DNA from: Escherichia coli
Lineage (GTDB): Bacteria > Pseudomonadota > Gammaproteobacteria > Enterobacterales > Enterobacteriaceae
Reading direction: 5' to 3' (one strand)
Assembly: GCF_013122565.1 (NCBI RefSeq)
Contig: NZ_CP053258.1
DNA length: 64,000 nt
Within the stretch, counting starts at the first letter, position 1, and each line of letters begins with the position of its first letter. Under the pieces are notes generated by a model, which had not been told where the DNA came from, searched no databases, and saw only the letters and a program-made list of their open reading frames with translations. The position numbers were made by a program, and so were the translations under genes. Positions 45,395 through 45,817 of this stretch are shown here, piece after piece.

Positions 45395-45497
45395 TGTCAT
45401 ACCCTCAATTTGTTTTTTCATTTAACCCCACTGCGGGGCCGTTGAAATAACTATATCCCTGGGAATGGTAGACTTCCGTGAGTGGTTGGTTTCAGCG

Positions 45498-45511
45498 TGT
45501 AACGATATGTA
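45498..45511 (-). promoter_or_regulatory. RstA box in the asr promoter
   Basis: bottom strand TACATATCGTTACA is an exact match to the RstA consensus TACATNTNGTTACA as I recall it, about 105-118 bp upstream of the asr ATG. Confidence 0.6.
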
Positions 45512-45817
45512 CAAACGCTGAATAAATTACAGCATTGATAATAACGTATTGTGACTTAAGGAAAATTTAGCTACCAATAATAGTAGTCTTGATCGGGTTA
45601 ACTATTTTACTACTTACAAAGCGGTAGAATAACTGCGCATCAGTAATAAATGACACACAGCAAAATGAATCCGTTTATTTGGGTACTTATAATCTTGATG
45701 ACGCTAGATGCGCTGCGGGAATTGGCTGGCGCTTCGTCTATTTTAGGATGGCTATTAACGTTGGTTTGAGCAGGCAATAAGTCCGGATGGGTATTTACCG
45801 CAGTCCGGACTTATTTT

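Follow-up and report, generated by a model that had tools for sequence, protein, structure and literature searches.

The RstA box of the Escherichia coli asr-samT promoter and its conservation across Enterobacterales genera

The DNA analyzed here (hereafter, the window) is a 64-kb segment of an E. coli chromosome, and the locus under study was found in 5,422 of the 5,426 complete genomes. The neighboring genes stand in the same order as in strain K-12 (ynfL-ynfM-asr-ydgU-ydgD-mdtI). Judged by its identity of ~99.1% to the best complete E. coli genome (20 kb compared), the window is from a lineage without an exact representative in the complete-genome collection. The interval 45395-45817 corresponds exactly to the 423-bp spacer between the stop codon of ynfM and the start codon of the acid-shock gene asr. 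It had been described, from the letters alone, as an AT-rich region of about 420 bp, and this description holds: the GC content of the spacer is 40.0%, compared with 50.2% for the whole window, and falls in the lowest 1.8% among 423-bp windows. Comparison with the K-12 spacer revealed eight differing positions, none of them within the RstA box; in the promoter between the box and the asr ATG, only the base at 45469 differs. The features of the locus are collected in Table 1.

Table 1. Genes and promoter elements of the asr locus (positions in the window; relative positions refer to the inferred transcription start)
Feature	Position	Strand	Relative position	Basis
ynfM, MFS transporter gene, 417 aa	45818..47071	minus		ORF
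Extended RstA region, CAGCGTTTGTACATATCGTTACA	45498..45520	minus	-77..-55	PMC9026648 coordinates mapped onto the window
RstA box, TACATATCGTTACA, two direct TACA half-sites 10 bp apart	45511..45498	minus (asr coding strand)	-68..-55	Exact consensus match
Conserved proximal block, CGCTGAAACCAACCACTCACGGAAG, about 25 bp	45473..45497	minus	-54..-30	Cross-genus alignment
Published "Pho box," CTCACGGAAGTCTACCAT	45482..45465	minus	-39..-22	PMC9026648 coordinates
-10 hexamer, TATAGT	45455..45450	minus	-12..-7	Sequence; fixed ungapped distance from box in 35 loci
asr transcription start, inferred	45443	minus	+1	Back-calculated from published relative coordinates
5'-terminal asr leader stem-loop, CGGCCCCGCAGTGGGGTT	45441..45424	minus	+3..+20	Folding: 6-bp stem, 5-nt loop
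Shine-Dalgarno sequence, GAGGG	45406..45402	minus	+38..+42	Sequence
asr ATG	45394	minus	+50	asr CDS start
asr CDS, 102 aa	45086..45394	minus		NCBIfam NF033636 Asr, 99 bits; RefSeq annotation
ydgU/samT, 27-aa membrane peptide	44910..44993	minus		Translation differs from K-12 YdgU by one residue
rstA, OmpR/PhoB-family response regulator	33978-34697	minus		NF007977 RstA equivalog, 485 bits
rstB, sensor histidine kinase	32673-33974	minus		NF007898 equivalog, 833 bits

Other features were observed in the ynfM-asr spacer. A small ORF at 45650-45769 on the plus strand, divergent from asr and convergent with ynfM, encodes a hydrophobic protein of 39 aa (MTHSKMNPFIWVLIILMTLDALRELAGASSILGWLLTLV), and its start lies 139 bp from the RstA box. 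The predicted protein matches NCBIfam NF033695 ("KPN_01571 family / transporter-adjacent 30-aa") with 63 bits, the cutoff being 35, and the ORF is annotated by RefSeq in many E. coli genomes, K-12 MG1655 not being among them. Directly past the ynfM stop codon, an inverted repeat (AATAAGTCCGGA...TCCGGACTTATT, 45778-45812) with a stretch of T residues after it on the plus strand looks like a ynfM terminator, and it may be bidirectional and also serve the convergent small ORF. This repeat was not listed by a simple terminator scan.

The cognate two-component system RstA/RstB is encoded in the same window, as the earlier note had stated, and both genes were identified by equivalog-level matches. 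The solved structures closest to the RstA of the window are those of Klebsiella RstA (4NIC, 2MLK, and 4NHJ). Among them, the DNA-binding domain in 4NHJ, crystallized on an asr RstA box, is the nearest solved relative of the RstA of the window. The start of rstA is 10,801 bp from the RstA box. The further suggestion that a distance of some 11 kb between rstAB and its target is meaningful found no supporting evidence and was set aside, given that the gene order is the standard one of K-12 and that the upstream neighbors of asr vary between genera. As asr is preceded by different sequences in different genera, the RstA box travels with asr, not with its neighbors.

An exact match to the RstA consensus TACATNTNGTTACA had been reported at 45498-45511 on the asr coding strand, and our search of the window reproduced it. 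The 14-bp site, with its direct TACA half-sites 10 bp apart from center to center, reads GCGTTTG TACATATCGTTACA CGCTGAAACC in its minus-strand context and is the sole exact match on either strand of the window. By chance, 0.01 exact matches would be expected, as estimated from dinucleotide-preserving shuffles, with only one of 100 shuffles containing any match. When up to two mismatches were allowed, the window contained four sites compared with 3.6 expected; these sites are thus at chance level, and only the exact site stands out. Ogasawara and colleagues reportedly derived the consensus from a small SELEX target set that included the asr site. If the asr site helped to define the consensus in this way, the exactness of the match is partly circular and carries little weight alone.

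The looser pattern TACA-N6-TACA occurs four times in the window, compared with 1.17 occurrences expected, and two of 100 shuffles reached four. One occurrence, TACAAAACATTACA (4513-4526, minus strand), falls between the genes nth and dtpA, on the coding strand of dtpA, and K-12 has the identical sequence 334 bp upstream of the dtpA ATG. The gene dtpA (tppB) is OmpR regulated, and the RstA and OmpR motifs are similar, so this sequence may be an OmpR or RstA site. Another occurrence, TACAGTACTTTACA (59253-59266, minus strand), lies in the short intergenic region between the divergent genes ynfC and ynfD; in K-12, the identical sequence is found on the ynfD coding strand, at a distance of 49 bp upstream of the start codon.

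Conservation of the box was analyzed within E. coli and across genera. A 42-mer around the box was found without any change in 5,343 of 5,422 E. coli genomes, and the whole spacer was at least 99% identical in only 27 of them. For the cross-genus comparison, a scan for the Asr protein with one genome per species yielded 34 loci, which come from Escherichia, Citrobacter, Siccibacter, Serratia, Rahnella, Rouxiella, Cedecea, Pluralibacter, Shimwellia, Superficieibacter, Entomohabitans, Pseudocitrobacter, Enterobacter-like isolates, and metagenome-assembled genomes. All 34 of these other Enterobacterales loci carry TACA-N6-TACA on the asr strand at 116 to 122 bp from the ATG, the distance in the window being 117 bp. 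Loss of the motif in close relatives, which the earlier note had named as the observation that would speak against its reading, is not the pattern seen here: the motif has been kept, both among the E. coli genomes and in every asr locus of the other species.

In the alignment of 35 asr loci, both TACA half-sites are invariant (2.0 bits), the cross-genus consensus of the box is TGTACAWWNNRTTACA, and position 7, a T in the SELEX consensus, is unconstrained between genera. Upstream of the box, the sequences are unrelated between genera (0.14 bits per column), and conservation sets in abruptly at TG-TACA; in the extended region upstream of the box, only the TG directly before the first TACA is conserved. 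Toward the gene, no locus of the alignment shows an insertion or deletion between the box and the -10 hexamer, and the distance of 56 bp from the start of the box to the start of TATAGT is the same in all 35 loci, which places the box at a fixed position in the promoter, upstream of the -10 hexamer and on a defined face of the helix.

Relative to the inferred transcription start, the RstA box is centered at -61.5. This start was back-calculated from published relative coordinates (box end at -55, Pho box at -39..-22), which, like the footprint limits, were taken from secondary sources, and it falls 7 nt past TATAGT. The sequence at the -35 position, CGGAAG at a spacing of 17 bp, agrees with the consensus at two of six positions, leaving the promoter with no usable -35 element. 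A scan of 45000-45900 with the sigma70 consensus gave no promoter-like site; this was expected because the asr promoter is activator dependent, and the scan is uninformative there.

Downstream of the start, the leader stem-loop listed in Table 1 is nearly invariant in sequence, loop included, in the 35 asr loci of many genera. Its folding energy is ordinary (z = 0.03), so that conservation alone singles the hairpin out. It is not a described RNA family, as an Rfam scan of 44700-46000 (E<=1) gave no match, and no mention of it was found in the asr literature that we searched. The hairpin may be an mRNA-stabilizing 5' structure or a binding site.

Control of asr by RstA through this box is already known and has been in the literature since 2007. 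Later publications (PMC4117788; PMC6824119) credit Ogasawara et al. (2007, J Bacteriol 189:4791) with the box TACATNTNGTTACA and with asr as its target. RstA shifts the asr promoter of strain LF82 in an EMSA, and binding disappears upon deletion or scrambling of the box (PMC11135836). Purified RstA binds Pasr in DRaCALA and, together with the sigma70 holoenzyme, activates it in vitro, and comparison of the wild type with rstA and rstAB mutants demonstrated that induction of Pasr at pH 5 needs rstAB (PMC13425233). The same study described asr and the 27-aa ydgU/samT as one RstA-dependent operon that exerts negative feedback on RstB (PMC13425233). A promoter-engineering study placed the RstA box at -77..-55 and, with a 9-bp spacer to the -10 element, a PhoB box at -39..-22; it also reported that randomizing the sequence downstream of the RstA box can abolish acid responsiveness (PMC9026648). 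An EMSA performed in EHEC (PMC6824119) was rejected as support: the "asr" primers in the supplement of that paper map at 45093-45327, within the asr CDS and not over the box, so that either the table is mislabeled or the box was not probed.

The box of the window is identical to that of K-12, and its binding, the activation by RstA, and the dependence on RstA are published (PMC11135836; PMC13425233), which bears out the proposal that it is an RstA operator controlling asr. We found nothing that contradicts this reading, and we put the probability at about 95% that the site is the RstA operator already established for the asr-samT promoter in E. coli. Binding, box dependence, activation in vitro, and dependence on rstAB are, in outline, the published work of others. 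Our own observations are that the site is present, that it is unique in the window, and that both the site and its spacing to the -10 element are conserved, within E. coli as well as across Enterobacterales. Only this comparative support is new, with the box kept, and kept at a constant distance from the -10 hexamer, in many Enterobacterales genera.

The site most likely operates as follows. Mild acid would act through RstB, and low Mg2+ would act through PhoQP by raising rstAB transcription, each resulting in phosphorylated RstA. Phosphorylated RstA would dimerize and place two winged-helix domains head to tail on TACA-N6-TACA, with the center at about -61.5. Bound RstA would then recruit or stabilize sigma70 RNA polymerase, the promoter offering a good -10 hexamer, TATAGT, but no usable -35. 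The resulting transcript would carry two genes, asr for a basic chaperone of the periplasm and samT/ydgU for a peptide that would damp RstB. In this scheme, we infer the precise position of the transcription start, a class-I-like arrangement, and any interaction with the alpha subunit of the polymerase.

An alternative, proposed in 1999, is that PhoB is a direct activator of asr, alone or with RstA, through the element at -39..-22. Dual control of asr by PhoBR and RstBA has been stated, with a PhoB box overlapping the -35 region (PMC4117788; PMC9026648). The position of this element fits the placement expected of a Pho box, 10 bp upstream of the -10 hexamer, and its 5' half, ACTCACGGAA, is strongly conserved between genera. 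Its agreement with the Pho consensus CTGTCATAWAWCTGTCAY (two 11-bp direct repeats), however, amounts to only 11 of 18 positions in the window and 12 of 18 in K-12, and 514 other 18-mers of the window match as well. A Pho-box consensus scan was accordingly rejected as a discriminator, the asr site being inseparable from this background. The 3' half and the spacer to the -10 hexamer are nearly unconserved across genera (0.46 bits), and outside Escherichia the orthologous promoters do not conserve both half-sites. Experimental evidence also argues against PhoB: neither ChIP-seq nor RNA-seq gave any sign that PhoB binds or regulates asr (PMC9934606), and deletion of phoB had no effect on the activation of omrB by an rstAB plasmid, a result that is indirect for asr (PMC13425233). 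Because the Pho box is poor and half unconserved and the ChIP-seq and RNA-seq results are negative (PMC9934606), direct control of asr by PhoB is the weaker model, and we consider it improbable. The unconserved second half of the Pho box in turn backs the conclusion, drawn recently from ChIP-seq, that PhoB does not target asr.

The single base between the box and the asr ATG that differs from K-12 lies in this second Pho half-site, at about -26, where the window has A and K-12 has G. The 42-mer at 45448-45489, which includes it, was found unchanged in none of the 5,422 complete E. coli genomes and at 95 to 99% identity in 5,421 of them, suggesting that the A at 45469 is probably a substitution private to this lineage. 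We did not retain it as remarkable, as private changes are expected at an identity of ~99.1% to the nearest complete genome.

It is also conceivable that the box is used mainly by another regulator of the OmpR family, such as OmpR itself, and that RstA is secondary. GTTACA-type half-sites are OmpR-like, which counts for such a role. RstA and OmpR have been reported on the same DNA motif at csgD (PMC13425233). RstA alone, however, activates Pasr in vitro, acid induction depends on RstB-RstA (PMC13425233), and no report of OmpR control of asr was found in the literature searched, which makes a leading role of OmpR or a relative at this site very improbable. A chance match in AT-rich DNA with no regulatory role can be dismissed: the spacer is 40% GC and relaxed forms of the motif turn up about as often as expected by chance, but only 0.01 exact matches would be expected in a window, none of the 35 loci deviates in the half-sites although their upstream flanks are unrelated, and conservation together with published mutagenesis (PMC11135836) and direct experiments (PMC13425233) has already refuted it.

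With the box taken as the RstA operator of asr, the conserved sequence between it and the -10 hexamer calls for consideration in its own right. The proximal block has the cross-genus consensus CGCCGATACCAATCACTCACGGAA and carries 1.4 to 1.8 bits per column without indels in the 35 loci; its conservation equals that of the box and exceeds that of the internal spacer of the box (1.24 bits). It contains the half-site-like elements (T/A)ACC and TCAC, and their AC cores extend the phasing of the box at 10, 10, and 11 bp. From this pattern we infer that the block may be a second site for RstA or for another OmpR-family protein. The conserved half of the published Pho box could accordingly bind a second RstA dimer or make contact with the polymerase.

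We tentatively propose, as an idea that we consider rather doubtful, that the operator is a module of ~40 bp (-70..-30) with four phased half-sites, TACA, TACA, T/AACC, and TCAC. The proximal pair would be a weak site for a second RstA dimer or an OmpR-family partner and would replace the -35 element, and PhoB would not be a direct regulator. If such a module exists, the Pho-box assignment of 1999 would be reinterpreted, and the loss of acid responsiveness caused by mutations downstream of the box would be explained (PMC9026648). The asr promoter serves as a pH-responsive part in synthetic biology (PMC9026648), and in engineering Pasr or modeling RstA binding, the region from -70 to -30 is best handled as one unit.

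Comparison with known systems places the site closest to the asr RstA box of K-12, with which it shares the 14-bp sequence, the strand, the distance to the ATG, the flanking 42-mer, and the neighboring genes ynfL-ynfM-asr-ydgU-ydgD. The box itself is no different, and the promoter of the window is set apart by one private change outside it, A for G at 45469. The OmpR sites at ompF and ompC (F1-F3 and C1-C3) are phased arrays of 10-bp half-sites that reach the -35 region. As in these arrays, the AC elements of the asr promoter are phased, at 10, 10, and 11 bp from -68 to -35, and there is no -35 element; unlike in these arrays, binding of RstA at asr has been shown for the distal pair only, and the proximal AACC/TCAC pair is a weak match. 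The PhoB-dependent promoters of pstS and phoA share with asr the regulator family and an activator site in place of the -35 element. Unlike them, asr has a Pho box that matches at 11 to 12 of 18 positions, has an unconserved second half, and is unbound in ChIP-seq (PMC9934606). At the asr box of Klebsiella pneumoniae, the regulator family, the target gene, and the tandem head-to-tail half-sites are shared with the window, and the DNA-binding domain of Klebsiella RstA was crystallized on that box as a head-to-tail pair (PDB 4NHJ); the Klebsiella site is an imperfect TACA/TACT repeat, compared with the perfect TACA/TACA repeat of the window (PMC4117788).
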